A DNA stretch of 25,983 bases from the IMG/VR virus record IMGVR_UViG_3300037044_000261, positions 1 to 25,983 of that record. One strand, given 5' to 3'. Under the pieces are notes generated by a model. It was given only the letters and a program-made list of their open reading frames with translations. It searched no databases and was not told the DNA's origin. Made by a program: the position numbers and the translations under genes. Numbering within the stretch: the first letter of the stretch is position 1; every line of letters starts with the position of its first letter. The DNA is from a virus (Duplodnaviria; Caudoviricetes). Of the stretch, positions 2,664 to 25,681 are shown piece after piece.

Positions 2664-3971
2664 ATGGTGTCTTTCAGCGCAGGTCAGGATGCGGCCCGCC
2701 GCCTCTTGGAAGGCTTACAGCGTTACACCTGTCTTGCCGGAGGCACGCGCTCGGGAAAGACTTTCCTCATCGTTCGGGCTATGATTATGCGCGCTCTTCA
2801 ATCCGAGGGCTCGCGCCACGCGATTTTACGTTTCCACGCGAATGCGGCGAGGGCCTCCATCGCGCTTGATACGCTGCCGCAAGTGATGAATCGTTGTTTT
2901 CCGGACACGCCTTTGAAGGAGCGTCGTCAGGATGGATTCTTTGAACTGTCAAATGGTTCGCGTATTTGGATCGGCGGTCTCGACGACAAAGATAGAGTCG
3001 AGAAAATCCTCGGGCTCGAATATTCGACCGTCTTTCTGAACGAGGCCTCGCAGATTCCCTATTCCTCCGCGCTGATCGCCTTTACCCGCTTGGCGCAAGT
3101 TGCGCCGAAGCTTCGTCAGCGCGCCTTCGTCGATCTTAACCCGATCGGCAAAACGCATTGGACAAATCTACTTTTTGGCGACAAGCGCGATCCTATTTCG
3201 CTTCAGCCGCTGAAGGATCCGCAGAGCTATCAACGGGCCTTTCTAAATCCGCCGGACAATGCCGCCAATCTTTCGCCGGAATTCCTTGGAAGCCTTGCTA
3301 ATCTACCCGAAAGGCAACGGAAGCGCTTCTACGAAGGCCTCTACGTCGATGAGGTCGACGGCGCGCTTTGGACCTATCAATTGATCGAGGCCAACCGTTG
3401 CGCGCTCGAAGATATTCCAGAACAAAAACGCGCCGCTGTCGTCGTCGCCGTTGATCCCTCGGGCGCAGCCGGCCGTGATGATCTTAGCGCCGACGAAATC
3501 GGAATAGTCGTCGCCGCTAAGGGTTTTGACGGAGACGCCTATATTCTTGCTGATCGCTCCTGTCGCGAGGCGCCTGCGGTTTGGGGCCGTCGCGCCGTAG
3601 TAGCCTTTCACGAATATCGCGCGGATTGCATTGTCGCCGAGAGCAATTTCGGCGGCGAGATGGTTCGCGCGACGATCAAGGTCGCCGATCAAAACGTCCC
3701 AGTTCGCCTGGTTACGGCCAGTCGCGGCAAGGCGGTGCGGGCCGAGCCCATTTCGGTGCGTTACGCGCAAGGCCAGGTGCACCACGCTGGTCGCTTTGGC
3801 AAGCTCGAGGATCAACTCTGCGGCTTTTCCGGCGCAGGATACGGCGGGAGCGGCAGCCCCGATCACGCCGACGCCGCTATCTGGGCTTTGACCCATTTGT
3901 TCGGCGATGGCGACAGCGCGGGCATCATTGAATTTTATCGACGCGAGGCCGAAGGGCGCGGCGGCGCGTGA
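2664..3971 (+). CDS. terL: Terminase large subunit
   Basis: Walker A AGGTRSGKT, Walker B-like VFLNEA, coupling motif LNP, nuclease motifs VAVDPS and DHADAAIWAL; directly upstream of the portal. Confidence 0.93.
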   Translation: MVSFSAGQDAARRLLEGLQRYTCLAGGTRSGKTFLIVRAMIMRALQSEGSRHAILRFHANAARASIALDTLPQVMNRCFPDTPLKERRQDGFFELSNGSRIWIGGLDDKDRVEKILGLEYSTVFLNEASQIPYSSALIAFTRLAQVAPKLRQRAFVDLNPIGKTHWTNLLFGDKRDPISLQPLKDPQSYQRAFLNPPDNAANLSPEFLGSLANLPERQRKRFYEGLYVDEVDGALWTYQLIEANRCALEDIPEQKRAAVVVAVDPSGAAGRDDLSADEIGIVVAAKGFDGDAYILADRSCREAPAVWGRRAVVAFHEYRADCIVAESNFGGEMVRATIKVADQNVPVRLVTASRGKAVRAEPISVRYAQGQVHHAGRFGKLEDQLCGFSGAGYGGSGSPDHADAAIWALTHLFGDGDSAGIIEFYRREAEGRGGA

Positions 3972-4025
3972 CGCGGGCGTCGATCGCGGCGTCCTCACCA
4001 ATCCAATTTTGACGAAGGACATAAA

Positions 4026-5408
4026 ATGGCCGATCGCAGCGCGGGGCAAAGATGCTGGTCGCTCAGTCCCTACGAGGTTAACGTTAGCTTCGAGCGCGCC
4101 GCTAAGACGAAAGACGCCGGCGATTGGTTCGGTCCCTCAACGCCTATTGCGTCGCTCGCGTCGCCGGAGGTCGCGGGACGGCAGTGGGACTATCCGGCGG
4201 GCTTCAATCTTTTGACCTCAGCGCGAAGTTCTGAGCCGATCACCTTTGCGACCTTGCGTGGATTGGCGGACGGCTACGACCTCTTGCGTCTCGTTATCGA
4301 GACGCGGAAAGATCAAGCCATGCGTCAATCCTGGAGCATCGCTGCGCGCGACCGGATGGCGAACGCCGCAAAAAGCGCCGATCGGATAGCCGCGGCGAAG
4401 CACTTCTTTGCGCGGCCGGACGGAAACCATGTTTTCGCAGACTGGCTGCGGCTGTTGCTCGAAGAGGTTTTTGTAACCGACGCCGCGGCGCTTTACATGA
4501 GCCGCGATAGAGGCGGTCGCCTCAAAGCGCTCTTGCCTATCGATGGAGCGACGATCAAGCCGGTGATCGACGCCTGGGGCCGCACGCCGCAGCCCTACAT
4601 GGAAAATGATAAACTGGTCTATCCCATCGCTTATCAGCAGGTGCTGAAAGGCTATCCGGCGATCGACTATTCGGTGCGCGATCTGATCTATCGGCCGCGC
4701 AATCTTCGAGTCAATCGGATCTATGGCTACAGCCCGGTTGAGCAGATCGTGACGACGGTCAATATCGCCTTGCGCCGACAGATGTTTCTTCTGGACTATT
4801 TCACCGAGGGCAATATTCCCGACAGCCTAATCGGCGTGCCGGAAAACTGGACGCCGGATCAGATAGCCTCCTATCAGAAATATTGGGACGTCTATTTCGA
4901 TGGCGACGTCGGGCGCCGCAGGCGGGCGAAGTTCGTTCCGGGGGGAGTCGCAAAGACCTTTATTCAGACAAAGGAGCCGGAACTCAAGAGTCCCTTCGAC
5001 GAATGGTTGGCCCGAATCGTGTGCTTTGCCTTTTCGATTTCACCGCAGTCGCTGATGCAGACGATGAATCGCGCCACCGCCGAGACCCAAAAGGACATCG
5101 CGGAAGAAGAAGGCCTGTCGCCGATCTTGGCTTGGGCGAAGGGCTTGATCGATGAGATTCTGGCGAGAGAATTCGATTCGGCCGATTTGGAGTTCATTTG
5201 GACGCCAGGGCACGAGACCGATCCTCTGACGCAGGAGACGATCCTCTCCAACTATGCGTCGAAAGGCATATTGACGATCAACGAGGCCCGCGCGGCGCTT
5301 GGCCGCGCCCCCTTGTCGGAAGAAGCGGCGAATAGGCCCATGGCTCTGACGGCGGGCGGATATGTGGCCTTGCCGGCTGGCGGCGGTGCGAATCCTAACG
5401 ATTGGTGA
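4026..5408 (+). CDS. Phage portal protein
   Basis: 460 aa. YGYSPVEQI, PIDGATIKP and C-terminal GILTINEARAALG portal motifs; RBS AAGGA upstream; position after terL. Confidence 0.9.
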   Translation: MADRSAGQRCWSLSPYEVNVSFERAAKTKDAGDWFGPSTPIASLASPEVAGRQWDYPAGFNLLTSARSSEPITFATLRGLADGYDLLRLVIETRKDQAMRQSWSIAARDRMANAAKSADRIAAAKHFFARPDGNHVFADWLRLLLEEVFVTDAAALYMSRDRGGRLKALLPIDGATIKPVIDAWGRTPQPYMENDKLVYPIAYQQVLKGYPAIDYSVRDLIYRPRNLRVNRIYGYSPVEQIVTTVNIALRRQMFLLDYFTEGNIPDSLIGVPENWTPDQIASYQKYWDVYFDGDVGRRRRAKFVPGGVAKTFIQTKEPELKSPFDEWLARIVCFAFSISPQSLMQTMNRATAETQKDIAEEEGLSPILAWAKGLIDEILAREFDSADLEFIWTPGHETDPLTQETILSNYASKGILTINEARAALGRAPLSEEAANRPMALTAGGYVALPAGGGANPNDW

Positions 5409-5634
5409 ACTGGCCTGCCGAGTGATGGCTGCGCTGCTTTTGCGGCGCCTACAATTGTAGTTTGATTTGTTCTTTTTGCTGCTTTTCAACACGGTCGAAC
5501 GTTGGTCACGAGAGCTCTGCTCGATGATTTGCGGGTCATGCCGTAGCCGTACGACCGCGCCGGTCCAAAGGACCTGAAGACAAGTTCATCGTCAGTCTCT
5601 TTTCCGATCTTTTCTTGAATAGCAAGGAGCCTTC

Positions 5635-6717
5635 ATGTCCGCGCTGCGTATGTTCATTCCGATCACCAAGGTCGATGCGGCGCACCGCCTCGTCTATGGC
5701 CTCGCAACAGCAGAGACAGAAGACCGCGCGGGCGAAATTTGCGATTATGCCTCGACCAAGCCGCGCTACGAGAAGTGGTCGAAAGAAATGGCGCGATCGA
5801 CCCGCGGAAAGTCTCTCGGCAATCTGCGCGCAATGCATGGGCCGATCGCCGCCGGGAAGGTGACGGCAATCGATTTTAACGACGGGGCGAAGCAGATCGA
5901 GATCTGCGCCAAAGTCGTCGACGATGCGGAATGGCGGAAAGTCGCCGAAGGCGTCTACACCGGCTTTTCGCAGGGGGGGTCCTATGCGAGACGATGGACG
6001 GACGCCGATGGGCGAATTCGCTACACGGCCGAGCCTAACGAGATATCGCTGGTCGACTTGCCGTGCCTCCCGCAAGCTCGGTTTGAAATGATCAAGGCTG
6101 ATGGAACGAGTGAGTTGCGATGCTTCGATGCCGGGCGCGAAAAGGCCGCAAGAGTTTCGAGACTTATAGCGGACGCATCGCAGGAGGCGTCGACGCTCGT
6201 GGAGGAAGTCACGGAAGAGAACGAGGACCTGCCGAGCAAATTGCGCGCTCTGATCGCTCGGGCCTCGGCGATTCTTCAGGCCCTTGTTTCATCGGAGTGC
6301 GCCGAGGATGCCGATCGGCCGCCGATGACGGAAATAGACGCAACGAAAAAGGCTTCCCGCGCCGGCCCACGGATCGCCAAAGTGACCCCCAGCAAAGGCG
6401 AGCCAGACCGAGGGCGAATTCAGCAATTGCATGACGCCATGGTGGAGCTTGGGGCTGCGTGCGGCGTCCAGAAAATTGGCGTTTTCGGGTTGGAAAAGCG
6501 CTTCGATGATCTGAGCGCGACGCTCGCCGATGTGTTGCAACGGGTAAAGCGGATCGAGGAGCAGCCGCTTCCTTTGCCGTTGGCGGGACAAACGCGCGCG
6601 GTGGGAAAATTTGAGGACGCGGGGGAGGCTGCCGAGCAGCTTCTGTTGGATCCGGAAACGCTTTCGGTTCTGGCCATTAAATTGGCCCAGCGCAAAGGAC
6701 GCGCGCCGACGCGTTAG
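5635..6717 (+). CDS. Prohead protease with C-terminal scaffold-like region
   Basis: N-terminal RLVYGLAT..DRAGE..LRAMH..GVYTGFSQGG..EISLVDLP protease pattern, then a charged helical region; RBS AAGGAG at 5624. Confidence 0.8.
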   Translation: MSALRMFIPITKVDAAHRLVYGLATAETEDRAGEICDYASTKPRYEKWSKEMARSTRGKSLGNLRAMHGPIAAGKVTAIDFNDGAKQIEICAKVVDDAEWRKVAEGVYTGFSQGGSYARRWTDADGRIRYTAEPNEISLVDLPCLPQARFEMIKADGTSELRCFDAGREKAARVSRLIADASQEASTLVEEVTEENEDLPSKLRALIARASAILQALVSSECAEDADRPPMTEIDATKKASRAGPRIAKVTPSKGEPDRGRIQQLHDAMVELGAACGVQKIGVFGLEKRFDDLSATLADVLQRVKRIEEQPLPLPLAGQTRAVGKFEDAGEAAEQLLLDPETLSVLAIKLAQRKGRAPTR

Positions 6718-6901: not shown

Positions 6902-8419
6902 ATGAATATGCAGACCGGCGTTCAGGACGTTCTGGACCGGCTTAAGACCGCGCAGCAGAGACCGCTTGGCGATCCTCGCTTCAAGAGCCTCATTGGGCTT
7001 GAGAAAAGCACGTTTTCGCAAAGCGCAAATTCGGCATCCGGACTTACGTTCTACGATCTCGAACTCGGCGCGAAATTCCTTTATCCGGTTCTGACGCCTT
7101 TGCGCAATATGATCCCGCGCGTTTCAGGAAAAGGAGGCATTCAGGCGGCATGGCGGGCGATCACAGCGATCAATACCACGGGCCTTCGGTTTGGGGTATC
7201 CTCCGCGAACCGGGGCGGCGTTCTCGCGGTCGCAACGCAGGATTATACAGCAACCTACAAAGGTATCGGCGTCGAAACCAACGTCGACTTCGAAGCGCAA
7301 TATGCCGGCCAGGAATTCGATGACGTTCGCGCGATCGGCGCCAAGACCGGCCTTGAAGCGCTGATGCTCGGCGAGGAAGCGATGATCCTCGGGGGCTGCG
7401 GCTCTGTTCCGCTCGGCGCTACGCCGACGCCTTCGCTGGCGGCCTCGACGATAGGAGGCGCCCTTGCCGCCCAGACGTGGTCGGTTATTTGCGCGGCGAT
7501 GACTCTCGACGGCCTCATGAATGGCACAATTGCTGGCGGGGTCCAGGGACAGATCAGCCGCACCAATGCGGACGGATCCTCCGATACGTTTGGCGGCGGC
7601 GTAGCGAAAAAAAGCGCCAACGCGACGGTTGCGACAACCGGCGCCGCTGGATCAATCACGGCGACTGTCACGGCGGTTCCCGGCGCGCTCGGTTACGCCT
7701 GGTTCTGGGGGGCGGCCGGCGCCGAAACGCTTGGCGCGATCACGACCATCAACTCCGTTGTCGTCAAAGCGGCCGCGGCTGGCGTGCAAACTGCGGCCGC
7801 GCTCGGCGTCAATGACAATTCCGGCAATGCGCTCGCCTTTGATGGTCTGATCTATCAAGCTGTCAAGGCAGGGTCCGGCGCCTATGCCTATACGATGCCC
7901 TCAGGGGATGCCGGAATAGGCACTCCGCTGACATCGGATGGCGCAGGCGGAATCCTCGAAATCGACGGCGCTTTGAAATATATGTGGGACAATTATCGAT
8001 TGTCGCCGGATACTATGTGGGTAAGCTCTCAGGAAGCGCTGAATATTTCCAAAAAGATTTTGTCTGGATCGCAGGCGGCGGCGCAGCGCTTTGTTTTCGA
8101 GACGGCTCAGGATCTCGTCGGCGGCGGGATCATGGTGCGCACCTACTTGAACCGATTCTCAATGCAAGGCGGCAGCGTGATCGACATCAAGGTGCATCCG
8201 AACATGCCGGCGGGCACCATCCTCATGACGACAAGAGCGTTGCCTTATCCGCTTGCGGGAGTCGGAAACGTCATGCAGATCCGGACGCGGCAGGATTACT
8301 ATCAAATTGAATGGCCGCTTCGCACTCGAAAATATGAATACGGCGTTTATGCCGACGAAGTGCTGCAGAATTTTTTCCCGCCGTCGATGGCGTTGATTAT
8401 GAATATCGGCAACGGCTGA
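6902..8419 (+). CDS. Major capsid protein (505 aa) with internal Ala/Gly/Thr-rich insertion
   Basis: ATG at 6902 follows GGAG (6891) and is in frame with the 6611 ORF. FYDLE..LYPVLTPLRNMIPRV, FDGL, IKVHPNMP and YGVYADEVL motifs; position between protease and adaptor. Confidence 0.82.
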   Translation: MNMQTGVQDVLDRLKTAQQRPLGDPRFKSLIGLEKSTFSQSANSASGLTFYDLELGAKFLYPVLTPLRNMIPRVSGKGGIQAAWRAITAINTTGLRFGVSSANRGGVLAVATQDYTATYKGIGVETNVDFEAQYAGQEFDDVRAIGAKTGLEALMLGEEAMILGGCGSVPLGATPTPSLAASTIGGALAAQTWSVICAAMTLDGLMNGTIAGGVQGQISRTNADGSSDTFGGGVAKKSANATVATTGAAGSITATVTAVPGALGYAWFWGAAGAETLGAITTINSVVVKAAAAGVQTAAALGVNDNSGNALAFDGLIYQAVKAGSGAYAYTMPSGDAGIGTPLTSDGAGGILEIDGALKYMWDNYRLSPDTMWVSSQEALNISKKILSGSQAAAQRFVFETAQDLVGGGIMVRTYLNRFSMQGGSVIDIKVHPNMPAGTILMTTRALPYPLAGVGNVMQIRTRQDYYQIEWPLRTRKYEYGVYADEVLQNFFPPSMALIMNIGNG

Positions 8420-8542
8420 CCAATTTTGTGAAGGGGGAATTCTCGAGGCGGCCATGGGCGCGCGCATGACGCGCCTTGTCCTAAAGCAATTGTTACAGAT
8501 GTTTCGCGCTCTGGATGGGCGCCGAACGAGGGTGATCAGCAC

Positions 8543-9001
8543 ATGAAACTGCGCGCTCCTGAAGGGTGCGGTGGCCTATCGCACCAGGGCCAAATCTTGG
8601 AACTCGCCGGCGACGGTTCGCTGGAGGTAGACGAGGAGGCAGGGGCGGTCCTCGCCGCCCATGGCTTTAAGCCTTGGGGGAGCAAAAATGACCCTGGCGC
8701 CGCAACAACGATAAGCGGCGCGCCTAGCGCGCCGCCGCAGATCGTTACATTGAAGTCGCTGCTGGCAATCATCGCGGAAAATGCAGGCGCCGACGCTGCG
8801 GTCGCCGGGTCGCCTCCTTCCGTGCAGGGAGGCCAGCTGATTTCGGCTGCTAGCGAACCGATGGATGGCGAGGTCGAAGCCATATCTACGCTCAATCGAC
8901 AAGGGCTTTTTGCCTTTCTGAGATCAAGAGGCGCGTCCGTCTCTTTGCCGGTAACCAACGAGGAATTGCGCGCGGCGGCCCGACGCGCGATTGCTCCTTG
9001 A
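8543..9001 (+). CDS. Small capsid-associated protein with possible C-terminal helix-extension-helix (SAP/HeH-like) motif
   Basis: 152 aa between capsid and adaptor; C-terminus ISTLNRQGLFAFLRSRG..VTNEELRAAA; RBS GAGG upstream. Confidence 0.55.
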   Translation: MKLRAPEGCGGLSHQGQILELAGDGSLEVDEEAGAVLAAHGFKPWGSKNDPGAATTISGAPSAPPQIVTLKSLLAIIAENAGADAAVAGSPPSVQGGQLISAASEPMDGEVEAISTLNRQGLFAFLRSRGASVSLPVTNEELRAAARRAIAP

Positions 9002-9104: not shown

Positions 9105-9929
9105 ATGGCATCCGCCTTCGATCTCGCCAGCCTGGCGGACGTCAAGATTTGGCTTGGCATTTCGGGCGGCGATGATGATGTTCTTCTCGCCCGATTGATC
9201 GCGCAGACAAGCCGGGCGATCCTCGGCATCCTTGATCGTCCCGCCATTCTGCCGTCGATCTACAGAGAAATATACGATGACGGCGATGACGCTTCGATTT
9301 TGCTCCGGCAATGGCCGGTCAATGCGATTCTGTCATGCGACGTGAACGGCGAGTCTCTTCCGCCATCAGCGCCGCTTGCTGACGGCACAAGTCAGGCCGG
9401 TTTTATTTTCGATCCGCCCGACGCCGCGCCGCCCGGTCGAATGCAGAAAATATCGTTGCGCCGGAAAGGCTTCGCATGTGGTCGTCAGAATGTAGCGATT
9501 TCCTATTCCGCTGGCTATCAGGTCACGGCGGAGAACGCGCTTGTGCCGCCGAGCCCGCCATACACGGTATCGGCGCGGGCGCCCTATGGCGATTGGGCGG
9601 GCGATGGCGGCGTGGCCTATGTAGACGGTGCACCTCTTGGATGTGCTGCGGCCAGTCCAGAGCCTGGTCGCTATGCGATATCCAATGGCGTCTACACATT
9701 TGCCGCGGCAGACGCCGGCGCCCTCGTGCATTTGACTTATGGCTACGTTCCCGCGGATCTCGCCGCCTGCTGCATGGATTGGGCTGCTGAGCGATACGCC
9801 TATCGCTCGCGGATCGGCCAGCAATCGAAGTCCCTCGGTGGTCAGGAGACGATGGCGTTTCTTGTCAAGGACGTTCCTGATTTCGTGATCAGACTCTTGC
9901 AACCTTATCGCCGGGTAGTAACGCCATGA
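9105..9929 (+). CDS. Head-tail adaptor (HK97 gp6/SPP1 gp15-like) with inserted beta domain
   Basis: N-terminal LASLADVKIWLGI..DDVLLARLI and C-terminal VPADLAAC..LLQPYRR adaptor patterns. Confidence 0.82.
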   Translation: MASAFDLASLADVKIWLGISGGDDDVLLARLIAQTSRAILGILDRPAILPSIYREIYDDGDDASILLRQWPVNAILSCDVNGESLPPSAPLADGTSQAGFIFDPPDAAPPGRMQKISLRRKGFACGRQNVAISYSAGYQVTAENALVPPSPPYTVSARAPYGDWAGDGGVAYVDGAPLGCAAASPEPGRYAISNGVYTFAAADAGALVHLTYGYVPADLAACCMDWAAERYAYRSRIGQQSKSLGGQETMAFLVKDVPDFVIRLLQPYRRVVTP

Positions 9930-10372
9930 TCGACGTCGAGCTCAATGTGGCGGTGGTCAAGGTTGAGTTATGGCGCAGAGCGGACGAACTTCGGGACGCG
10001 CTTGAGGCGCGGATCAGGGATAAACTGACGGGTCAAGTCCTGCAAACCAGGTCAGGCGCACTCACGGGCTCCATAACCTCAGCTATCGCCGACGAAGGAG
10101 CGGCGGTATCGACGGTCGTCTCCAGCGTTGGCGCGCCATATGCGGCCATCTTGGAGTTCGGCGGTAAGACGGCGGCGCATAACATCATCGCGGTGAAGGC
10201 GAAGTCCTTGGCGATTGGAGCAGGCGGCGGCCAGGCTTTTGCCCGAAGCGTGCGTCATCCAGGCTCGACATTTCCCGCGCGTTCGTATCTTGGCGCCGCC
10301 CTCTCCGAAATGCGGGAGGAGATCGGGTCCGGCCTCAAGCAAGCGGTGCTCGCCTCATTGGGGCAATTGTAG
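9926..10372 (+). CDS. Neck/tail completion protein, HK97 gp10-like
   Basis: RSGALTGSI, PYAAILEFGG and PARSYL motifs; ATGA overlap with the adaptor. Confidence 0.75.
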   Translation: MIDVELNVAVVKVELWRRADELRDALEARIRDKLTGQVLQTRSGALTGSITSAIADEGAAVSTVVSSVGAPYAAILEFGGKTAAHNIIAVKAKSLAIGAGGGQAFARSVRHPGSTFPARSYLGAALSEMREEIGSGLKQAVLASLGQL

Positions 10373-10451: not shown

Positions 10452-10898
10452 ATGTCAACGACGCAGCGCGAGGTTGCGATAGAGGCGCTGAGGCGTCTCC
10501 TTGCAGACGCCTATCCTTGGAGGCTCGGTCCATCGCGACGCCTCAAGCTCTGGAGCGATGTGCCGGCGGCGAATCGGCCTGCCTGCTTTATCTACGAAGG
10601 CGGTCAGGAAACGTACTCCTGGAGCGAAACGGCTTTACCCAAGCGGGTTATCGAAGTGAAAATTTTCGTCTACCTCAACGCCAAGGATCCGGGCGCCGTC
10701 GGCGCGACGCTCGTCAATAAAGTCATGGACGCCATCGATGACGCCTTCAGGCTCATCGGCGGCGATATTATTTCCGGCCGAAATACTCTCAACGGCGCCG
10801 CCTATCACTGCCGCATCGACGGAAAGACGTTGAAAGATCCGGGCGATCTTGATGGCGATGCGCTTTTGATAGCGCCTGTGAAAATCGTCCTGCCATAG
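10452..10898 (+). CDS. Putative tail terminator protein
   Basis: ATG 10452 after GAGG, in frame with the 10215 ORF; 148 aa; sits just before the tail tube. Confidence 0.65.
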   Translation: MSTTQREVAIEALRRLLADAYPWRLGPSRRLKLWSDVPAANRPACFIYEGGQETYSWSETALPKRVIEVKIFVYLNAKDPGAVGATLVNKVMDAIDDAFRLIGGDIISGRNTLNGAAYHCRIDGKTLKDPGDLDGDALLIAPVKIVLP

Positions 10899-11795: not shown

Positions 11796-11796
11796 G

Positions 11797-12105
11797 ATGC
11801 GGCCGCTCAGCGAGACGATCCGGCTTGGCGCCCGTGAATGGTCCTTGCGGCCCTTGACCCTGCGCCAAGTGCAGGAGATCGAACCCATCCTCATGGCGGG
11901 CGCGCTTGAAGCGAGCGGCAATGTGGCGGCGGCGATGGCCATCGTCGCAATCGCGCTTCGGCGAGACCACGCCGAGGCGGCGGACCAACTCGCCGAGGTC
12001 GAGGCGACGGCGCCCGAGATCGGCGCGGCGATGGCGGCGGTCCTGCGGCTTGGCGGCTTTCTCAATGCGTCGATGGGAGGCGACGGCAGCCTGGGGGAAG
12101 CCTGA
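11797..12105 (+). CDS. Tail assembly chaperone (gpG-like)
   Basis: 102 aa, LRPLTL motif; ends L-G-E-A on a GGGGGAA slippery site. Confidence 0.78.
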   Translation: MRPLSETIRLGAREWSLRPLTLRQVQEIEPILMAGALEASGNVAAAMAIVAIALRRDHAEAADQLAEVEATAPEIGAAMAAVLRLGGFLNASMGGDGSLGEA

Positions 12106-17459: not shown

Positions 17460-17918
17460 ATGTGCACGGAAACTGACCGACGAGCGCTAATTGTTTCCGA
17501 GGCTCGCAAGTGGATTGGCACTCCATATCACTCCTGCGCAGACGTGCGGGGTGCCGGCGTTGACTGTGGAATGATCCTGGTCCGCATCTTTGTCGATCTC
17601 GGGCTCTGCGAACCATTTGACCCGCGCCCCTATGCTGAAGATTGGCATTTGCACCGCAGCGAGGAAAAATATCTCGGATTCGTCGAGGCGCGATTCAAGC
17701 AGATCGCTAGCCCTCTTCCTGGAGATATAGTCGTTTTCCGTTTTGGCCGTTGCTACAGCCACGGCGCTTTGGTCACAAAAAGCGATCCGCTGACCATCGT
17801 CCATGCATTTCAGCCGGCCGGAGTGGTGTTCGAAGAGGAGCTTGTCAGAAACATTCAACTTGCCGATCCAGTACGGCGTCGCCGCTATTACAGTCTTTGG
17901 GCTAGGGAGCTAGGATGA
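17460..17918 (+). CDS. NlpC/P60 tail-associated peptidase (RcGTA g14-like)
   Basis: ARKWIGTPYH, GVDC (catalytic Cys), PGDIVVF, SHG and IVHA motifs. Confidence 0.9.
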   Translation: MCTETDRRALIVSEARKWIGTPYHSCADVRGAGVDCGMILVRIFVDLGLCEPFDPRPYAEDWHLHRSEEKYLGFVEARFKQIASPLPGDIVVFRFGRCYSHGALVTKSDPLTIVHAFQPAGVVFEEELVRNIQLADPVRRRRYYSLWARELG

Positions 17919-20050
17919 GTTTTCTTCGCGCAAAGGGGACGTCGCGGGCATCCGTTCCAATGTATACCGGATTGCAAATACAGACGTCCAGCGCTGCCGT
18001 TCCAATTTCGATTGTTTACGGCGCGAACAAAGTGTCTTTCAATCTCATATGGACTGGCGGCTTCGCCGCCCAACCGCAATATGCGAAGAGCGGAGGGAAG
18101 GGAGGCGGCAACAAGACCCTGAATGGTTACGATTATCATGCCGCCTTCATTATGGGGCTATGCGAGGGACCAATCTTGGGCCTCGGGCGAGTATGGAATG
18201 GGCAATCCATTGGCGCCCTCGGGGACCTTGGGCTATCTTTGTTTAGCGGGACGACGCCTCAGAGCGCATGGGGCGCGTTGAGGCCAAACTTCGAAGACGA
18301 AGCGCTGCCGTACGGCGGGCTGGCCTATGTTGCGGCGTCTTGGTTCGATCTGGGATCAAGTGCTAACCTGCCAGCCCTTAATTTTGAAGTGCAAGGCGTT
18401 CTGTCGACCTCGGCGGTCGTTAACGAGTGTGACGCCGATCCAGCACTTATAATCCAAGATTTCTTGACAAATTCGCAGTACGGCGCGGGATTTCCGGCCT
18501 CCAGCATAGACGCGATGACACTCTTGGGTTCATCCGGAAGTTCGTCCTATCAGACCTATTGCCAAGCGTCAGGGCTCGCCATCTCGCCCGCAATTGTTAA
18601 TCAAGAGACCGCCAACAGCATTCTGGCGCGCTGGCTGCAAATTACCAACACCGTGGCCGTATGGTCGGGTGGTCAACTTAAATTTATTCCATACGGAGAT
18701 ATGTCAATTACGGGGCGGCGTCTCGGAGGCGCATCAATCACCTTCAACCCAAACCTAAACGTGATCTACCACTTGACTGACGACGATTTTGTTCTCGATG
18801 GCGACGAAGACCCAGTACAGGTAACGCGCGCCGATCCATATCTCGCGCACAATTGGCAGGCGATCGATATATCTCAAAGGTCGAACCACTACAACTCGAC
18901 CACGATTGAGGCATGGGACCAGAATGCGATCGAGCTTTATGGACTACGGAGAGCGCCAACTATTACGGCGCGCGAGATTTGCGATCCTAATGTTGCGCAA
19001 GTATCCGCTCAGTTGATTCTTCAGCGCGGGCTCCATGTTCGAAATACCTATATGTTCAAGCTTTCATTTGAATATTGTCTGCTTGAGCCTATGGATCTGG
19101 TGACCTTGACGGATGGTGGATTAGGGCTCGACAAAACGCCAGTTAGAATTGTTTCGATCGAGGAGGATGACGCGGGCATCCTAAGCATTACGGCAGAGGA
19201 ATTTCTTGGAGGCGTTGCGACGGCGGTCGCCTATCCCGTTCAAATTGGTTCTAGCACGCCAATCAATCGTAATATCTCGCCTACGCCGGTTAACGAGCCG
19301 ATAATTTTTGAACCCGGACCTGCCCTGACAAATGGTGTCCCGCAGGTTTGGATTGGGTTGTCCGGCGGTGCGGCTGGGGTCTCGGACCCGAATTGGGGTG
19401 GTGCATCTGTCAATGTCTCCTTCGATGACGTGTCATATGCTCGAATCAGTCAGGTAAGCGGCCCGGCGCGTCAAGGAGTTCTAACCGATCCGCTGCCCAG
19501 CGCGCTAAGCGGCGTAGTTGATCTAGCCAATATGCTTGCGGTCGATCTAACTATGAGCGCGGGAACGCTCGCGCCTGCGACGAATGTGGATGCTCAAAGC
19601 GGGGTTACCCTTGTTCTCGTTGATGACGAGCTTCTCGCCTACGGGGCGGCAACGTTGACAGGCGTAAGTTCTTATTCGCTGACGTCTCTTGAACGCGGGC
19701 TCCATGGAACATCGTCCGCTGCGCATTCAGTCGGCGCCCGCTTCTTGCGGCTAGACGACGCAATTTTCCGATATACGTTTCCGACAGCCTATGTTGGAAG
19801 AACCGTCTATTTTAAATTTCAAAGCTTCAACATATTTGGTGAGTCAACGCAAGATATGTCCGCTTGCGCGGCCTTTTCTTATACTCTTATAGGATCCGGC
19901 GCGCTTGGCTCTGTTGCGGGCGCCCTGTCGGTAGGCTCTGATCTTGATTTCGGGCTCACGTCCGCTGGAAGCAACGGTCAGGCGGATGACTTTGGGCTTG
20001 TGTCGGACGCATATACAACCGCAATTGACCTCGGATTGGCATCAGCATGA
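17915..20050 (+). CDS. Tail tip / host-specificity protein (Phage-tail_3/megatron-like, lacking the TIM barrel)
   Basis: PISIVYG, GLCEGPI, YGGLAYV, LPALNFEV and LEPMDLVTL motifs; follows NlpC/P60 with ATGA overlap. Confidence 0.83.
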   Translation: MSFLRAKGTSRASVPMYTGLQIQTSSAAVPISIVYGANKVSFNLIWTGGFAAQPQYAKSGGKGGGNKTLNGYDYHAAFIMGLCEGPILGLGRVWNGQSIGALGDLGLSLFSGTTPQSAWGALRPNFEDEALPYGGLAYVAASWFDLGSSANLPALNFEVQGVLSTSAVVNECDADPALIIQDFLTNSQYGAGFPASSIDAMTLLGSSGSSSYQTYCQASGLAISPAIVNQETANSILARWLQITNTVAVWSGGQLKFIPYGDMSITGRRLGGASITFNPNLNVIYHLTDDDFVLDGDEDPVQVTRADPYLAHNWQAIDISQRSNHYNSTTIEAWDQNAIELYGLRRAPTITAREICDPNVAQVSAQLILQRGLHVRNTYMFKLSFEYCLLEPMDLVTLTDGGLGLDKTPVRIVSIEEDDAGILSITAEEFLGGVATAVAYPVQIGSSTPINRNISPTPVNEPIIFEPGPALTNGVPQVWIGLSGGAAGVSDPNWGGASVNVSFDDVSYARISQVSGPARQGVLTDPLPSALSGVVDLANMLAVDLTMSAGTLAPATNVDAQSGVTLVLVDDELLAYGAATLTGVSSYSLTSLERGLHGTSSAAHSVGARFLRLDDAIFRYTFPTAYVGRTVYFKFQSFNIFGESTQDMSACAAFSYTLIGSGALGSVAGALSVGSDLDFGLTSAGSNGQADDFGLVSDAYTTAIDLGLASA

Positions 20051-20598
20051 GCATTCAAATCAAGCGTCGCCGTGAAGCTGAAAGCTTTCTTTCAAATTAT
20101 GCGGGCGCCGCCGGGGAGCTCCTGATCGACGTCACCAATAATAGAGTTCAAGTGCATGACGGCGTGACGCCAGGCGGCTTTCCAGCAGCTAAGCTGAGTG
20201 AGATCGTCGCCCTAGGGCCTCTTTCGACGATTGCGCTTGGCGCGCATGGGTCAAATATCAAATTTGGAGTCATTGAAGAGCTGCTGGCGCTATCCGGGAC
20301 CTCGACTAGCTCGACCATCCAAATTCCGAATCGAGCGATTGTGTTTGCCGTGTCGTCACGAACAGTCACAGCTGTTGTCGGCGCCCCATCTTATGGCGTC
20401 GGACCTTTTGGCGGCAATGCGACGCAGTTTGGCGGCGTCCTTGGCGTCGCCGTAGGGTCGAATAACTCGGGCGTAATCGGTCCAACTGCATTTTATTCGG
20501 ACACCAAAGTCGCGATTACAGCGACAAGCGGATCGTTTACGGGCGGTGAAGTCCGCGTCTCGATTCAATACATGCTTTGCGGCGTTCCGACGTCATAA
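20047..20598 (+). CDS. Short tail-fibre/receptor-binding protein: Mtd_N-like N-terminus plus C-terminus resembling DUF2793-family fibre tips
   Basis: N-terminal IQIKRR..GAAGELLID..VHDGVTPGG; C-terminal IPNRAIVFAVS.RT..FGG.LGVA.GS.N.GVIGPTAFY..SFTGG. Recognised from memory of these families. Confidence 0.62.
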   Translation: MSIQIKRRREAESFLSNYAGAAGELLIDVTNNRVQVHDGVTPGGFPAAKLSEIVALGPLSTIALGAHGSNIKFGVIEELLALSGTSTSSTIQIPNRAIVFAVSSRTVTAVVGAPSYGVGPFGGNATQFGGVLGVAVGSNNSGVIGPTAFYSDTKVAITATSGSFTGGEVRVSIQYMLCGVPTS

Positions 20599-20661
20599 TA
20601 GGACATATACAGGGTTTGTTGTTGAGTGGCTCATTTCGCCGGTCTATTGGAGCATTATCAA

Positions 20662-22410
20662 ATGAAGACGCAACTTATGCTTCCTCCCGAGGATGGCGGC
20701 CGAAACAGCGTCGTCGTTAACGGGCGCAACTATTCCAGCAAACCAGGCGTCTCAATTCATGTGCCAGGCTTTGACGCCGTAGCCCTGGAAGCAAATGGGT
20801 GGACGATCCTTACTGCTGGCGACGTAATAGGTGGGCGGGCGGACACCTGGGCGGCCCGCATGCGCTGCTGGGCCAGTTCGGCGCAAGGCAACAATCCCCA
20901 TGAACGGCCTTTATTGCGGGGCGCTCAAGCGTGGCGTCCGGCGCCGAACTGGGTTGCGACGGCGGTCTATTTGGTTGGCAATGCCGTCAATGCGAATTCC
21001 CAGCTTTGGGTGTGTATTGGGGCGGGAACCAGCGGATCGAATGCGCCGACAGGCTCGACGCTCGGAGCAATCATCCTAGATGGGACCGTTCGGTGGCTCT
21101 GGCAGCCCTATTTTGAAGGAACCTACGTCAGCAACGCTGGAAGCTTATTTCGGGTGATGACTGGCGGGTTGCCGGCCATCTCTGGAACAGGCCCTACAGG
21201 CGGTCCTGGACCAATCATTGATGGTACGACGACATTGAGCTATATGGGCCCGCAGGAATGCCCAATTGTCTCATATGGATTTGTTCACAATCCTGCTTTG
21301 TCAAGACAGCACACGCCGACACCGGTCGACAGTAATTCGCTGGTCAGATGGCGCGGGGGAATTCCAGTTACTCGGATCCTGAACGATATTCCACAGCCAC
21401 CGACGGTATGGACCTATTCGACTGATCCAAGCCCTTCTTCCGGCGGCATTATCTCCAATCCAGCGAATGGAATACAGAGGGATGCCGGTTGGTGCGGCTT
21501 TGAAGTGCGCCATGACGGTATCGTTTGTGAGATTTCGCTTCTGAACAATCAGACGGCGTTAAGCATTATTATAGATGGCCAATTCATTGCGGGCGTGACT
21601 TGGACTCCGACCGGGGCAGGCTCGCAACAGATTACGATTGACTTCAGTAACCTCGCGAGAAAATCCAGGGTCATCTGTGTCGAGGGGACGGCAGTCGGGC
21701 TCGTCAATCTTGCAACGGAGCCGACGGGGTCATTTCAAAGGCCAAACCGCGTTGATGATTCCTTTATGGTTGCGGGCATTTGCGACAGTCATGGATACGG
21801 CACGGGGGCCATGCTCCCTAGGTCGGCCAATTTTTTTCATACTCTCGCGACGTTGATGGGCTGGCCTGATGATTACTGCGATGCGCTCGCAGGAACCGGA
21901 TATATAGCAACAAACGGCGGTCTTTTCTCAAACTTCCAGGGCCGAGCGATTTCCCAGCTTCAACGAATCGTCGCGTACGGGAAGACAATTCAGGCAATCG
22001 TCATTGACGGTAGCCAAAACGACAGTGGCCAGCAGAACGCGGCTGTAACATATGCAGCGCTCGGGCTTTATCAATCTTTGCGAACGGCCGGCTTCAATCA
22101 GCCGATTTTTGTCATTGGAACGCCCTCAAATGGAGGGCCGTCTGCGACGCACATTGCCAATGATAACGCGGTCAAATCAGCGGTCACGATCAGGGTCGCG
22201 GAGGGTGACAACCTTATTTGGTATGTCGACATCAGTACGATGGCTCAGCCAGTCCTTTTCGGCACTGGCCGCGTTGGCGCAACTAATGGATCCGGGAATA
22301 CTGATTTCTACATCGGCGCAGATGGAACCCATATGTCTAACGCCGGCGCTCTTTATGTTGCGGTGTACATAAGGGACAAGATCAATGCGATCCTCTCTGG
22401 ACAGGCCTAG
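20662..22410 (+). CDS. SGNH/GDSL esterase with N-terminal attachment-like segment and two CBM-like repeats
   Basis: ATG 20662 after GGAG. SGNH blocks ICDSHG, AGTGY, DGSQND and DGTH; repeats Y..G..V....L[WF]...G..PTG...I.DGT. Confidence 0.78.
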   Translation: MKTQLMLPPEDGGRNSVVVNGRNYSSKPGVSIHVPGFDAVALEANGWTILTAGDVIGGRADTWAARMRCWASSAQGNNPHERPLLRGAQAWRPAPNWVATAVYLVGNAVNANSQLWVCIGAGTSGSNAPTGSTLGAIILDGTVRWLWQPYFEGTYVSNAGSLFRVMTGGLPAISGTGPTGGPGPIIDGTTTLSYMGPQECPIVSYGFVHNPALSRQHTPTPVDSNSLVRWRGGIPVTRILNDIPQPPTVWTYSTDPSPSSGGIISNPANGIQRDAGWCGFEVRHDGIVCEISLLNNQTALSIIIDGQFIAGVTWTPTGAGSQQITIDFSNLARKSRVICVEGTAVGLVNLATEPTGSFQRPNRVDDSFMVAGICDSHGYGTGAMLPRSANFFHTLATLMGWPDDYCDALAGTGYIATNGGLFSNFQGRAISQLQRIVAYGKTIQAIVIDGSQNDSGQQNAAVTYAALGLYQSLRTAGFNQPIFVIGTPSNGGPSATHIANDNAVKSAVTIRVAEGDNLIWYVDISTMAQPVLFGTGRVGATNGSGNTDFYIGADGTHMSNAGALYVAVYIRDKINAILSGQA

Positions 22411-22437: not shown

Positions 22438-22460
22438 AGCCGCCGTCGGGCGGCTTTTTT
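22438..22460 (+). terminator. Rho-independent terminator
   Basis: AGCCGCC-GTCG-GGCGGCT followed by TTTTT, about 30 nt after the esterase stop. Confidence 0.85.
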
Positions 22461-22479
22461 GTTGCAGATTAGACCTTTG

Positions 22480-22872
22480 ATGCTCAGATTATTGTTCCGG
22501 CTAATTGTAATTGTCGCCTGGTGCGGTCTCGTTGTCGTGGTACGGGCCGAAGTTCTTTTATCTTGTCAAGGCGGTGTCTACCGCGCCTCCTATTATGGCT
22601 ATAAGGGCGGCCATGTCATTGCCTCTGGCGAGCAATTTCGGCGCGAAGGGCTGACGGCGGCGCATCGTCGAATGCCATACGGTGGGCGCCTGATGGTCGA
22701 GTTCATTGGCCGACGGGTGATGGTGCGCATCAACGATCGCGGACCAGCAATGTGGACGGGTCGCTGTCTCGATTTATCGAAAGGCGCGGGACGCGTCTTG
22801 GGGACGATCAAGGCGGGCGTCGTCGCTGTGCGAATCAAGCGGCTGAACCAGCCTCTTTCTTATCTCACATAG
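22480..22872 (+). CDS. RlpA-like (double-psi beta-barrel) lytic transglycosylase with hydrophobic N-terminus
   Basis: ASYYG, ASGE.F, LTAAHR, VRINDRGP and LDLS..A motifs. Start uncertain: ATG 22480 chosen because TTG 22459 overlaps the terminator. Confidence 0.85.
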   Translation: MLRLLFRLIVIVAWCGLVVVVRAEVLLSCQGGVYRASYYGYKGGHVIASGEQFRREGLTAAHRRMPYGGRLMVEFIGRRVMVRINDRGPAMWTGRCLDLSKGAGRVLGTIKAGVVAVRIKRLNQPLSYLT

Positions 22873-22882
22873 GGCGACAAAA

Positions 22883-23827
22883 ATGCGCGCGGATTTGCTC
22901 CATATTGTCACTGCCATCGCCAATCCTCATCGATGGGAGAGTCGCATACGGCTCGCGAGGGATGCAATTAGCCATTGGGTCGCGGATGGCGCGTGTGTTA
23001 CCGTTGTGGAATGCGCATATGGCGATCGCCCGCATGAATTGGCCGATATAGCCAAGATTAATCATGTCGCGGTGCGGGCGCGAACTCTGGTCTGGAACAA
23101 GGAATGCCTCCTGAATATAGGGATTTCGCGCCTTCCGCGAGAGGCGCAATATATTGCGACGCTCGACGCAGACGTCCGCTTCCGTCGGCCTAAGTGGCCG
23201 ACGGAGACGATACACGCCTTGCAGCTCTATCCGGTGGTTCAGCCATGGACAGATGCATACGATCTTGGGCCAAATGACGAGCACATCGCTCATCACAGGT
23301 CTTTCGCAAGGCAGTTCTTTCACGGCTTCCCTGTTGCGCCAATCGGGACGAATTGTTGGAAGGCGGCCGGGGGGCCTTACGATTATCCACATAGCGGTTA
23401 TGCCTGGGCGTGGACGCGCCAAGCTCTTGATCAGCTTGGCGGGTTGATTGAGATCGGAGGCATGGGATCGGGCGACCATCATATGGCGCTTGGACTTGCC
23501 GGCCAGGCTGATGCGTCGATTCCGTTGGGTGCGCATCCGTCCTACATCAGGGCAGTCAAGCAGTGGGAAGCGCGCGCTCTGACGCACATCAATCGGAAGA
23601 TTGGGTTTGTGAGGGGGACAATCGAGCACGCCTTTCACGGTCGAAAGGCGGACCGGAAATATGTGCCTCGTTGGGATATGTTCCTGAAATTTGGGTTCGA
23701 TCCAAGCGCGGATCTAAAGCGCAACACCTTTGGCGTGTTGGAGTTCGCAGGCAACAAGCCGACGCTCGAGCGGGCGTTTGATCGATACATGCGCGAACGC
23801 GAGGAAGACGTCAACACTCTCAGCTGA
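22883..23827 (+). CDS. Hypothetical protein, putative GT-A fold glycosyltransferase
   Basis: 314 aa. KECLLNIG, DxD motif TLDADV, G.AWAWTR..L..LGGL and GSGD motifs resemble GT2/GT7-like C-terminal patterns. Confidence 0.55.
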   Translation: MRADLLHIVTAIANPHRWESRIRLARDAISHWVADGACVTVVECAYGDRPHELADIAKINHVAVRARTLVWNKECLLNIGISRLPREAQYIATLDADVRFRRPKWPTETIHALQLYPVVQPWTDAYDLGPNDEHIAHHRSFARQFFHGFPVAPIGTNCWKAAGGPYDYPHSGYAWAWTRQALDQLGGLIEIGGMGSGDHHMALGLAGQADASIPLGAHPSYIRAVKQWEARALTHINRKIGFVRGTIEHAFHGRKADRKYVPRWDMFLKFGFDPSADLKRNTFGVLEFAGNKPTLERAFDRYMREREEDVNTLS

Positions 23828-23855
23828 GAAAGCAGGCCCAACGATATTCGGTACT

Positions 23856-23877
23856 GCCGCCTTCGGGCGGCGTTTTT
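23856..23877 (+). terminator. Rho-independent terminator with cUUCGg tetraloop
   Basis: GCCGCC-TTCG-GGCGGC-G-TTTTT, ending 18 nt before the endolysin start. Confidence 0.82.
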
Positions 23878-23895
23878 GTTGCGTGAGGATCCATC

Positions 23896-24621
23896 ATGGC
23901 GGCTGAAAATTATAAAGCGTGCTTGTCATTCGTGCTGCGTTTCGAAGGAGGCAGGAGCGACGATCCGAAAGATCCCGGGGGTCGAACGCTGAACGGCGTG
24001 ACGCAGACGCGGTACGATCAGTATAGGGAGGAAAAGCGGCTCGGTCGGCGCGATGTCTATCTGATGACGACAGATGAGCGGGACGAAATTTACCGCTCCG
24101 GCTATTGGGTGCCGATCAGGGGCGATCGGCTGCGTTCTGGCGAAGATCTCGTTGTCTTTGACTACGGCGTGAATTCCGGCCCAAGACGAGCGCTTTCGGC
24201 TTTGAGGCGTGCCGGGATTGGCGACGCATCTGCTGAGACAGTGGTTCACAGGCTTTGTGCGGAGCGCCTCTCTTTCTTGCATGGGCTCCGGACCTGGTCG
24301 CATTTTGGCTCGGGTTGGGGCCGCCGAGTCGCGGCGTGTGAGGCGCTCGCAGTTATGATGCTGCATGGCGTCGACAGCGAGAAGATTCTTGGGGACAAGG
24401 CGAAGCAGGCGAGCGCGGCGGGGAGAAAACACATGGCGAAGGGCGCCATTGGAGGCGCTGCTGCGTCGCAGGGTGATCTCATCCATCACGCCAGCGGAGG
24501 GCATATGGCGCTGACCATCGCCATTGGGGTCATTATCGCGATCGGGATTGGTATCGTCGCCTGGCAGGCGTGGCGACAATCTCAGCGAGCAGCGGCGTTC
24601 AAGGAAGCGGCACAGCGTTGA
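23896..24621 (+). CDS. GH108 family N-acetylmuramidase (endolysin) with C-terminal transmembrane helix
   Basis: EGG..D.KDPGG.T..GVTQ, VFDYGVNSG and FG.GW.RR motifs; tail MALTIAIGVIIAIGIGIVAW; RBS GAGGA. Confidence 0.88.
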   Translation: MAAENYKACLSFVLRFEGGRSDDPKDPGGRTLNGVTQTRYDQYREEKRLGRRDVYLMTTDERDEIYRSGYWVPIRGDRLRSGEDLVVFDYGVNSGPRRALSALRRAGIGDASAETVVHRLCAERLSFLHGLRTWSHFGSGWGRRVAACEALAVMMLHGVDSEKILGDKAKQASAAGRKHMAKGAIGGAAASQGDLIHHASGGHMALTIAIGVIIAIGIGIVAWQAWRQSQRAAAFKEAAQR

Positions 24622-24869
24622 CGGCGTCGATCTGATCTCGCGTGGGTCGCTTCGTTGAATGAAGGCGATAACGGCTTGCTCGGATGCGCTCCGTCGAATT
24701 TGGCGCTGGGTATGTCGGGGTCGTCGTTGGAAGCGCGTAGCGTCCTTCAGGTAGTTGGGGGGATTTGTAAATCATATGTCGCAACCGTAGCCGCTCCCGT
24801 TTTCGCGCGGAGCCCTTGGGCGAAATTCTCTATGCCGGCGTTGGCGTCGGCTCTTTGTGGAGACGCATC

Positions 24870-25235
24870 ATGATTTGGATTGCAGGAGGCGCGATTATCT
24901 TTGTTCTGCTGCTGCGGTTTTGGGTCCGGCCGAGAATTGCGGAATTTCGCAAATCGATCGGCCTCGACGCTAAAATTGCAGAGGCGGAGACGTTCTGGGC
25001 GTGGGTCAGGCTAAAGACTGAGGGTTTGAAGACCATTTTTGTCGGGGTCGGCGGCATGATCGCTGCTGCTATTCCCGAGCTGGCCAAGGAGTTCGCTGGC
25101 ATAGATCTTTCGCCCATCATCGGGTCTGACTGGGGCGGAAAGGTTGCAGTGGTAGTGGCGTTAGCGACGACTGTCTCCCATGTGATCGGCATTATGTCGG
25201 CGGCCAAAGCAGATCCCGTAAAGGAGGAGGCATGA
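24870..25235 (+). CDS. Small membrane protein, putative holin/lysis accessory
   Basis: ATG 24870 after GGAG; 121 aa with three hydrophobic segments; follows the endolysin. Confidence 0.6.
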   Translation: MIWIAGGAIIFVLLLRFWVRPRIAEFRKSIGLDAKIAEAETFWAWVRLKTEGLKTIFVGVGGMIAAAIPELAKEFAGIDLSPIIGSDWGGKVAVVVALATTVSHVIGIMSAAKADPVKEEA

Positions 25236-25681
25236 TGCTTGCGCTCATTGTTCCGATCCTAAACGCTCTGCTGGGTTCGCTCATAACCCCCTTCGTCACC
25301 GCATGGGTCGCGTATAAAAAAGATAAGCTGATGATCGAGCAAGCGGGGTACGCGGCGGGAGCCGCCGCGGACGTCGCCATCATGCAAACGGCGCTTACTA
25401 TGGAAGCGCAGAACAATGCGCTGAAGGTGCAAGTGCACGGCCATTTCATCAATCGCACCATCATGTGGGTTGCGGGATTCCCGGCGGCGCTTCATTTCGG
25501 TCTCGTGTTTGTTGACACGATCATTGCGGCAAAGCTCTTCTGCGGCTCGGCCATTCTCGGCGTACCGAAGCTTCCGGCGCCATATGACACTTACGAGTGG
25601 GCGATCGTCACCAGCTTTTTCCTTGTTCAAGGCGTGCACCTAGGAACAAGCAATGTATCGGCATGGCTCGGCCGGAAATAG
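25232..25681 (+). CDS. Membrane protein, putative holin (3TM-holin-like)
   Basis: 149 aa; hydrophobic N-terminus, helical linker, two more hydrophobic segments, LP.PY motif; strong RBS AAGGAGGAGG and ATGA overlap. Confidence 0.6.
   Translation: MMLALIVPILNALLGSLITPFVTAWVAYKKDKLMIEQAGYAAGAAADVAIMQTALTMEAQNNALKVQVHGHFINRTIMWVAGFPAALHFGLVFVDTIIAAKLFCGSAILGVPKLPAPYDTYEWAIVTSFFLVQGVHLGTSNVSAWLGRK

Follow-up and report, generated by a model that had tools for sequence, protein, structure and literature searches.

The IMG/VR virus record IMGVR_UViG_3300037044_000261 (Duplodnaviria; Caudoviricetes) comprises 25,983 nucleotides, a stretch that is called the window here. Most of it is one operon for head, tail and lysis proteins (positions 2664 to 25681, plus strand), and the question raised by this locus is whether such an operon belongs to a virus or to a gene transfer agent (GTA) of the bacterial host. 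An earlier note on this DNA had suggested a new GTA, either independently domesticated or a chimera of a foreign head with the tail tip of the Rhodobacter agent RcGTA. Judged from sequence comparisons we lean, with a little better than even confidence, towards a replication-less operon that would encode an independently domesticated GTA-like particle packaging host DNA. That the locus specifies a functional, separately domesticated phage-derived particle, be it used as GTA or as weapon, is regarded as probable.

In the definition used (PMC9662315) GTAs consist of caudoviricete-derived proteins, are fully endogenized and mostly vertically inherited, have a head too small for their own genome and package and deliver mostly random host DNA. 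For the element described here caudoviricete-derived genes, endogenization (in relatives) and mostly vertical inheritance were found. The window is a stand-alone record without flanks, and all findings on flanks come from the genomes of relatives.

Chromosomal setting, inheritance and distribution

The independent domestication proposed in the earlier note is well supported by the single locus, the co-phylogeny with the hosts, purifying selection, the absence of a nearby integrase, the shortened scaffold and tape measure and the near mutual exclusion with canonical GTAs. In the window 24 open reading frames (ORFs) run in the same direction from terL to 25681, and all core genes are of full length, without visible pseudogenes. 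Matches to Pfam, PHROGs and NCBIfam comprise terminase, portal, protease, adaptor, neck, tape measure, GTA_TIM, Dit, hub, NlpC/P60 and megatron, further an Mtd-type fibre, RlpA and a GH108 endolysin. Among the window proteins these three collections gave no match to an integrase, repressor or replication family, and a search of the window found no tRNA, as the earlier reading had stated.

In the relatives host genes flank the element on both sides. Four genomes (G005, G088, G193 and G325) share the site between egtB and hisD/recJ, G120 shows both flanks of this site around an internal deletion, and G001 has the right flank and the regulator in common with this group. Other subclades have other fixed neighbours (meaB; aspS in G337 and G338), and in G002 and G289 the element is found elsewhere. 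Neither an integrase nor a phage replication gene was detected in 91 of about 233 non-element ORFs scanned in six 60 kb regions. The nearest tyrosine recombinase is 24-300 kb away in 5/5 genomes; serine recombinases were not searched genome-wide. In two public sequencing runs, which may be those from which the window derives, a contig of 31.5 kb carries the element and, by record coordinates, extends about 5.6 kb beyond the left end of the window. The read depth of 19 for the element matches the 18-22 of other contigs joined to the repeat at its right end, which means that the element is not amplified and is present in single copy. The repeat itself has a depth of 361-374 and thus about 19 copies.

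Comparison with the species tree and measurement of the ratio of non-synonymous to synonymous changes (dN/dS), both proposed earlier as checks, are in favour of vertical inheritance under selection. A ten-gene tree of the element, built for those 50 of 60 genomes that had enough genes, has 33/47 splits in common with the rpoB tree (mean 0.24 and maximum 3 in 300 shuffles), with a patristic rho of 0.51. For the genes between terL and nlpC, among them those for head and packaging, median dN/dS is 0.11-0.25 (Nei-Gojobori medians on unsaturated pairs, with dS near saturation): 0.11 for terL (60/171 pairs), 0.12 for portal (84/171), 0.13 for capsid (105/231), 0.11 for tube (59/210) and 0.24 for both tape measure and hub, compared with 0.06 for rpoB. 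Hence the genes of the element are under purifying selection. Gene calls in 60 loci gave 599 intact and 23 split genes, where assembly errors are indistinguishable from real breaks.

A further sign in favour of domestication is length. In 32 chromosomal copies (leaving out G108, G311, G300 and one uncertain start) the protease-scaffold protein has 290-443 amino acids (aa) and the tape measure about 420 aa, versus 572-760 aa and 870-1165 aa in phage and prophage copies. The window proteins with 360 and 421 aa follow this rule if compared to 593 and 966 aa in Brevundimonas phage Polewnik. Scaffold and tape measure are thus about half the phage length, from which the size of the head cannot be read.

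Capsid relatives were found in 30/46 genomes of the genus of G001 (Methylocella/Methylocapsa), always at a single place, with the gene split six times. These genus tallies include five unpublished genomes (G307, G317-G320); excluding them, the counts are 26/41 for the capsid, 30/41 for the TIM barrel and 36/41 for the regulator DUF6362 discussed below. The capsid occurs further in 49/301 genomes of the family and in 21/81 genomes of one Xanthobacteraceae genus; in an order-wide sample the capsid profile was found in 1/301 genomes, namely G001 itself. The window groups with the Methylocella-type chromosomal copies (capsid 88% identical to G001), and in IMG/VR 362 stretches match such loci.

Genomes that carry the element hardly ever encode a canonical megatron as well. 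Among 49 family carriers 45 have a GTA_TIM match; the score is that of a short type in 44 of them (E weaker than 1e-110) and canonical-like in one (G161), whereas 182/252 non-carriers score a canonical TIM (E<=1e-112), and the 150 matches listed include frames of close to 1300 aa. Here the E-value serves as proxy for the TIM type, and related genomes do not count as independent events. A frame near 1300 aa occurs in 0/34 genus genomes bearing TIM. DUF6456, which we take to be part of GafA, was found in 0/3 carriers, in 2/2 canonical genomes and in a Caulobacter control. The element would stand in place of the usual gene transfer agent, which these bacteria appear to lack, and this near exclusion suggests one job filled twice.

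Origin of head, terminase and tail tip

For tracing the origin of the module the comparison set consisted of ten canonical GTA clusters from the same family and the Brevundimonas phages Polewnik and Strzyga (tblastn, E<=1e-3). Portal, protease, capsid, neck, terminator, tube and tape measure had no tblastn match in 10/10 canonical clusters, and the adaptor gave weak matches in two of them. Therefore the opinion of the earlier note that the 505 aa capsid and 245 aa tube (and, apart from these weak matches, the 274 aa adaptor) do not belong to the RcGTA type was confirmed. Polewnik and Strzyga have the orthologues in the same order from portal to megatron with 35-61% identity. The portal (4026..5408, 460 aa; PF04860, phrog_2662) is 49% identical and is devoid of the MuF-like extension present in the Polewnik portal. 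It is followed by the prohead protease with scaffold-like tail (5635..6717; phrog_9427) and the major capsid protein (6902..8419; phrog_13692), which is about 60-61% identical to those of Polewnik and Strzyga. Then come the head-tail adaptor (9105..9929; PF05135, phrog_442), a neck or tail completion protein (9926..10372; PF05069, phrog_26), a likely tail terminator, assigned from its position (10452..10898; phrog_8150, 41% to the Polewnik orthologue), a likely tail tube, assigned from position and phage orthology (11058..11795; phrog_8234, 37% to Polewnik), and the tape measure protein (12459..13724; phrog_2854). Adaptor and tube share an inserted domain of 60-70 aa, as they do in Polewnik.

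The structure model of the capsid (predicted local distance difference test score, pLDDT, 89) shows an HK97 fold with a beta-rich insertion at about residues 172-310. The best hit of the fold search was the SPO1 capsid (Z 19.8, root-mean-square deviation (rmsd) 8.4, 298 aligned residues); for the RcGTA capsid Z was 15.9 with 10% identity. TIGR01554 did not match the capsid. Searches of PDB sequences with the capsid, a capsid alignment and a DUF6362 alignment returned nothing useful and fold searches alone were informative.

The tail tip does not follow the RcGTA pattern that had been ascribed to it. The GTA_TIM barrel, fused to a DUF2460 piece (13728..15989; PF13547, PF09343), forms a separate gene before the distal tail protein Dit (15986..16594; DUF2460 family match), and the megatron-like tip protein of 711 aa (17915..20050; PF13550, PF23666) is without TIM barrel. 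In other words the megatron is split into genes for 753 and 711 aa, scoring 429 and 145 bits with NF048004 versus a cut-off of 800. The families of Dit, baseplate hub (16591..17457; PF09931, PF09356, TIGR02218 above cut-off) and NlpC/P60 cell wall peptidase (17460..17918; TIGR02219 below cut-off, phrog_329) stand in RcGTA order, but the same holds for Polewnik and this order is hence not diagnostic. Identities are higher with the phage: 40% versus 26-32% in canonical clusters for the hub, 41% versus 30-38% for NlpC/P60, and for the megatron 43% over residues 8-662 (655 residues) versus 27-35% on short pieces. In a tree of hub and NlpC the element is found with the phages, away from the canonical clusters. 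A chimera of a foreign head on an RcGTA tip is thus rejected, and since head, tube and tip are all nearer to Polewnik, a phage family like that of Polewnik is the likely source of the entire structural module.

Two parts remain closest to RcGTA. One is the TIM barrel (29-33% identical to canonical clusters), whose gene matches the RcGTA megatron 6tba with an E-value of 2.4e-70 and has no match in Polewnik or Strzyga. The other is the nuclease half of the 435 aa TerL (2664..3971; PF03237, PF17289, phrog_979), with 39-43% identity to canonical TerL in 9/10 clusters and 35% to Polewnik. Only the ATPase half is of another type, so that the earlier statement on a TerL unlike that of RcGTA stands for one half of the protein.

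Compared with RcGTA and CcGTA (Rhodogtaviriformidae) the element shares a morphogenesis-only cluster, vertical inheritance, purifying selection, a short tape measure, the Dit-hub-NlpC/P60-megatron families, the GTA_TIM barrel and the TerL nuclease family, as well as, with CcGTA, a putative control by repressor and antiterminator. It differs by portal, protease, capsid and tube without detectable sequence similarity, by the split megatron with TIM before Dit instead of a single TIM megatron of about 1300 aa after NlpC/P60, by a TerL without the Pro/Cys signature treated below, by DUF6362 in place of DUF6456 as putative activator and by a repressor that keeps the catalytic residues missing in RogA. 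BaGTA of Bartonella is a separately domesticated alphaproteobacterial GTA with its capsid operon under a Q21-like antiterminator, BrrG (10.1101/2024.11.20.624540); its run-off replication module was not found in the element, and the proteins of the two were not directly compared. Polewnik and Strzyga (vB_BpoS-, 62 kb) have, in contrast with the element, a helicase, nucleotide-metabolism genes, the long protease and tape measure, the MuF-like portal tail and no TIM. Methylobacterium prophages (G334, G340 and G341) share the gene order, the TIM::DUF2460 gene, a 71-72% identical capsid and a 70-72% identical tube; unlike the element they have replication genes, a NusG-type antiterminator (G334), a scaffold of 576-584 aa and a tape measure of 1058-1158 aa. 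In L353-L358 (G340 and G341) signalling genes of the host, for PAS/GAF, GGDEF, HD and chemoreceptor proteins, are inserted in the tail region of these prophages.

In the literature the homologues g2 g3 g4 g15 g12 g13 g14 of Methylocella silvestris BL2 were reported by Shakya et al. (PMC5721377) in the order seen here, and the available part of that paper does not treat this cluster as a separate lineage. RcGTA-like genes in real prophages are described in PMC11409702. The available portions of PMC12142844 and 10.1101/2022.05.20.492862 do not describe the element, and no description of it as a separate lineage was found in the literature searched, with most subscription papers outside its scope.

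The Ala/Gly richness mentioned in the earlier note is real but small: 22.4% versus 18.6% in the Polewnik orthologues, with 21.4% already in flanking host proteins. In aligned columns the window proteins have 4.77 carbons per residue, those of Polewnik 4.89 and the host flank 4.83. As a sign of a GTA this bias was rejected as weak and mostly host background.

Regulation, proposed mechanism and competing explanations

In many relatives an S24 repressor gene lies before terL, facing away from a GcrA-like gene and DUF6362. Copies of the repressor (CI-type) within the genus have 71-97% identity, and 9/9 aligned sequences retain the cleavage site together with the catalytic motifs around Ser and Lys; RogA is devoid of these catalytic residues (PMC9632790). 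The DUF6362 model (pLDDT 77) shows a sigma-4-like helix-turn-helix. Q21 (Z 6.8, rmsd 4.9, 115 aligned) and AlpA (Z 6.0, rmsd 7.8, 97 aligned) are plausible hits covering most of the chain, tied with those of sigma-factor domain 4, and Phage_antitermQ is found in 11% of the members of an ESM neighbour cluster. From its model DUF6362 can be considered a putative Q/AlpA-like protein. Antiterminators control both CcGTA (PMC11150451) and BaGTA (10.1101/2024.11.20.624540).

The operon does not start abruptly at terL, as had been supposed. Two promoter-like direct repeats of 60 nt (2153..2212 and 2404..2463, plus strand; 88% identical, spacing 251) come before it, with the layout TTGAC, 20 bases, TATAT, conserved spacer and downstream bases, and are predicted to act as late promoters and antiterminator loading sites. 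Relatives have 1-4 copies before terL (58 matches in 28 upstream regions, none on the opposite strand). Genome-wide, a degenerate pattern yields one cluster per genome, located before terL in G001, G088 and G193, occurs once in G324 and is found neither in G120 nor in a reversed control. A scan for E. coli-type promoters found 0 and missed the repeats. Further downstream two intrinsic-terminator-like hairpins within the operon (22438..22465 and 23855..23882, plus strand, the latter immediately 5' of the endolysin gene) stand ahead of lysis genes, where 23 sites were counted versus 12.5 expected; over 2600-14500 the count is at chance level (15 versus 14.1). A similar hairpin lies at the matching place before the endolysin in 3/7 relatives searched.

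These features could be joined in one mechanism. Once RecA triggers self-cleavage of the CI-type repressor, the GcrA-like gene and DUF6362 would be expressed. From the tandem promoters, where it would load, DUF6362 would allow read-through of the internal terminators as far as the lysis genes, and TerL, with no adjoining small terminase and its own locus not amplified, would fill a small head with chromosomal DNA. Lysis of the cell would follow, and the particles would inject this DNA into kin. In the host of the window the regulator cassette would act from another locus, as it stands apart from the operon in several relatives (G002, G004, G330 and G311). In its widest form, to which we give somewhat less than even chances, this means that a further GTA lineage replaced RcGTA across the Beijerinckiaceae methanotroph clade and its kin, with a DNA-damage CI/Q switch, with packaging without small terminase, at times toxin-loaded, and still trading its module with Methylobacterium prophages.

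Several observations weigh against a GTA. Patchy presence and variable loci, named in the earlier note as refuting signs, were partly found: the capsid is missing in 16/46 genus genomes and the insertion site differs among subclades. The tree comparison likewise has another side, as 5/37 well-supported splits conflict with rpoB and within the genus only 9/17 splits agree. At least one split gene was seen in 15/60 loci, and G120 and G276 have deleted, broken copies. No small terminase gene was found upstream of terL by ORF listing and DNA conservation. Pro282 and Cys292 are a signature of GTA terminases (PMC7947584), and the TerL of the window has Ser and Ile (numbering inferred) where seven canonical TerL have Pro and Cys. 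In another subclade the TerL of G110, G226, G296 and G077 carry Pro/Cys although within a Polewnik-type module. The fold scores of DUF6362 are middling, level with sigma domain 4, and its gene, found in 41/46 genus genomes, occurs even in genomes whose capsid gene is distant or absent; the regulator cassette persists in capsid-less genomes and so may have a different role. A use other than that of a GTA is also suggested by the toxin-immunity cassettes of relatives, and Methylobacterium prophages with replication genes bear the same module, TIM included, nested in the chromosomal clade. The latter means that the module still lives in prophages; the Methylobacterium copies may have escaped from the tamed form, or taming may have occurred more than once.

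A four-gene cassette (107 aa protein of unknown function, S24 repressor, GcrA-like and DUF6362) is intact at L169:17988-20000 and in L321-L332, with no structural gene within the stretch examined. This cassette may have a host role.

Among the competing explanations a weapon survives best, though we consider it unlikely. A domesticated headed particle would carry polymorphic nuclease-type toxins into related bacteria, or kill them by injection, with variable fibres for targeting and immunity arrays protecting self. In 19/80 genome loci there are ORFs that contain the motif W/F-D-x-x-x-H/Q-P-R and differ in their C-termini, some of them being portal fusions, and G005, G289, G316 and G337 have tandem arrays of toxin-like and DUF2019 genes 3' of the portal or capsid gene. 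Fibre and endolysin genes differ between close relatives. The combination of a cleavable CI-type repressor with an AlpA-like activator resembles pyocin and Alp lysis control. The position after the portal is that of MuF toxins (PMC5576092), and the Polewnik portal has its MuF-like tail, but a MuF domain was detected neither in the window nor in the relatives' toxin-like ORFs with DUF2019. Likeness with MuF polymorphic toxin systems and tailocins is thus given by portal-proximal toxin-immunity pairs in some relatives, variable fibres and own lysis genes; in contrast with tailocins the element has an intact terL, portal, protease and capsid, on all of which purifying selection acts. Moreover, the window, including the 227 bp gap after its portal, and 61/80 loci have no toxin-like ORF within the stretch examined, TerL is under purifying selection (0.11) in lineages without toxin, and the exclusion with canonical GTAs suits a shared role. 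Tandem duplications in L345:6531-11600 of G337 and also in G665 and G637 comprise the last 30 capsid codons and a toxin-like/DUF2019 pair, with up to six extra capsid-end copies in G665. At L029:2019, L031:5836 and L060:2916 the portals, 548-1123 aa long, are fused to the conserved motif followed by C-terminal tips that vary.

It is quite unlikely that the locus is an old grounded prophage in slow decay, in which the regulator cassette or lysis would be what selection maintains, with the structural genes carried along and no longer making a useful particle. The losses and split genes given above, internal deletions at the ancestral site, host-gene insertions within the operon, the missing small terminase and the regulator kept after loss of the operon would fit such a fate, whereas the ratio of intact to split calls across hosts with near-saturated synonymous sites, the low dN/dS, a tape measure length nearly constant across clades and conserved promoter repeats speak against it. 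An active or helper-dependent prophage, with the window as late region and early genes beyond the record, is very unlikely: the record is filed as a virus, and Methylobacterium prophages with primase/helicase, DnaB and replication initiator bear the module with a 70-75% identical capsid (in G334 TerL likewise), but the window groups with the chromosomal Methylocella-type copies, its scaffold and tape measure are of the short kind, the operon has a gene of host type as its immediate upstream neighbour, and the read depth in both runs is that of a single copy. No integrase, att site or replication module was found in the window or near five relatives.

Further genes of the window and significance for the family

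The divergent host-type gene noticed beside terL is a neighbour outside the element (1..1992, minus strand) for a TPR-repeat protein with glycosyltransferase-9-like C-terminus (Pfam TPR, PF01075). In 80 relative genome loci it was not seen adjoining terL. Within the operon a 152 aa protein of no assigned family (8543..9001) varies with 27-52% identity in relatives. Two small ORFs at 11779..12404 are placed in the tail-assembly-chaperone slot by position alone; they are kept in relatives and have no family. After the megatron follow a fibre-type protein with Mtd N-terminal domain (20047..20598; PF18454) and a likely tailspike-type protein of 594 aa with SGNH/GDSL-like C-terminus (20626..22410), which has no direct family, resembles relatives with GDSL matches and lies in a region that varies among them.

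The lysis region starts with an RlpA-like lytic transglycosylase with N-terminal hydrophobic segment (22459..22872; PF03330, TIGR00413). The next gene, a lead only, encodes a GT2-like glycosyltransferase of 314 aa from a mostly viral cluster (22883..23827), a near-maximal match in the ESM Atlas; it recurs in the lysis region of G120, G232 and, on the opposite strand, G001. The GH108 endolysin with C-terminal hydrophobic segment (23896..24621; PF05838, phrog_315) is less distinctive than had been thought, as a GH108 match also adjoins 6/10 canonical clusters. Two small membrane proteins at 24816..25681 (phrog_12264, unknown function) are holin-like from position and hydrophobicity only. Each has two hydrophobic segments, but neither matches a holin family. 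With them the operon ends, as noted before, but at 25861..25983 (minus strand) the end of a multicopy insertion sequence (IS)-like repeat follows, with a transposase C-terminus by translation, presumably of IS630 type. It occupies the place where relatives have a conserved 94 aa membrane/coiled-coil gene 3' of the holin-like pair, a gene absent from the window.

The filing of such loci as viruses in IMG/VR may inflate virus counts of soil and peat. Only a small number of GTA lineages are known to be independent, and the remoteness of the RcGTA ancestor makes it difficult to study how a phage turns into a GTA. In the present case one module coexists in lytic-type phages, in replicating prophages and in a reduced chromosomal form, at 60-75% capsid identity, and with the three forms side by side the changes of domestication become readable and testable. 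Such changes would comprise loss of replication, halving of scaffold and tail, a swapped terminase and a fixed repressor. Cultured hosts exist, and the near exclusion with RcGTA bears on the question why GTAs are kept.

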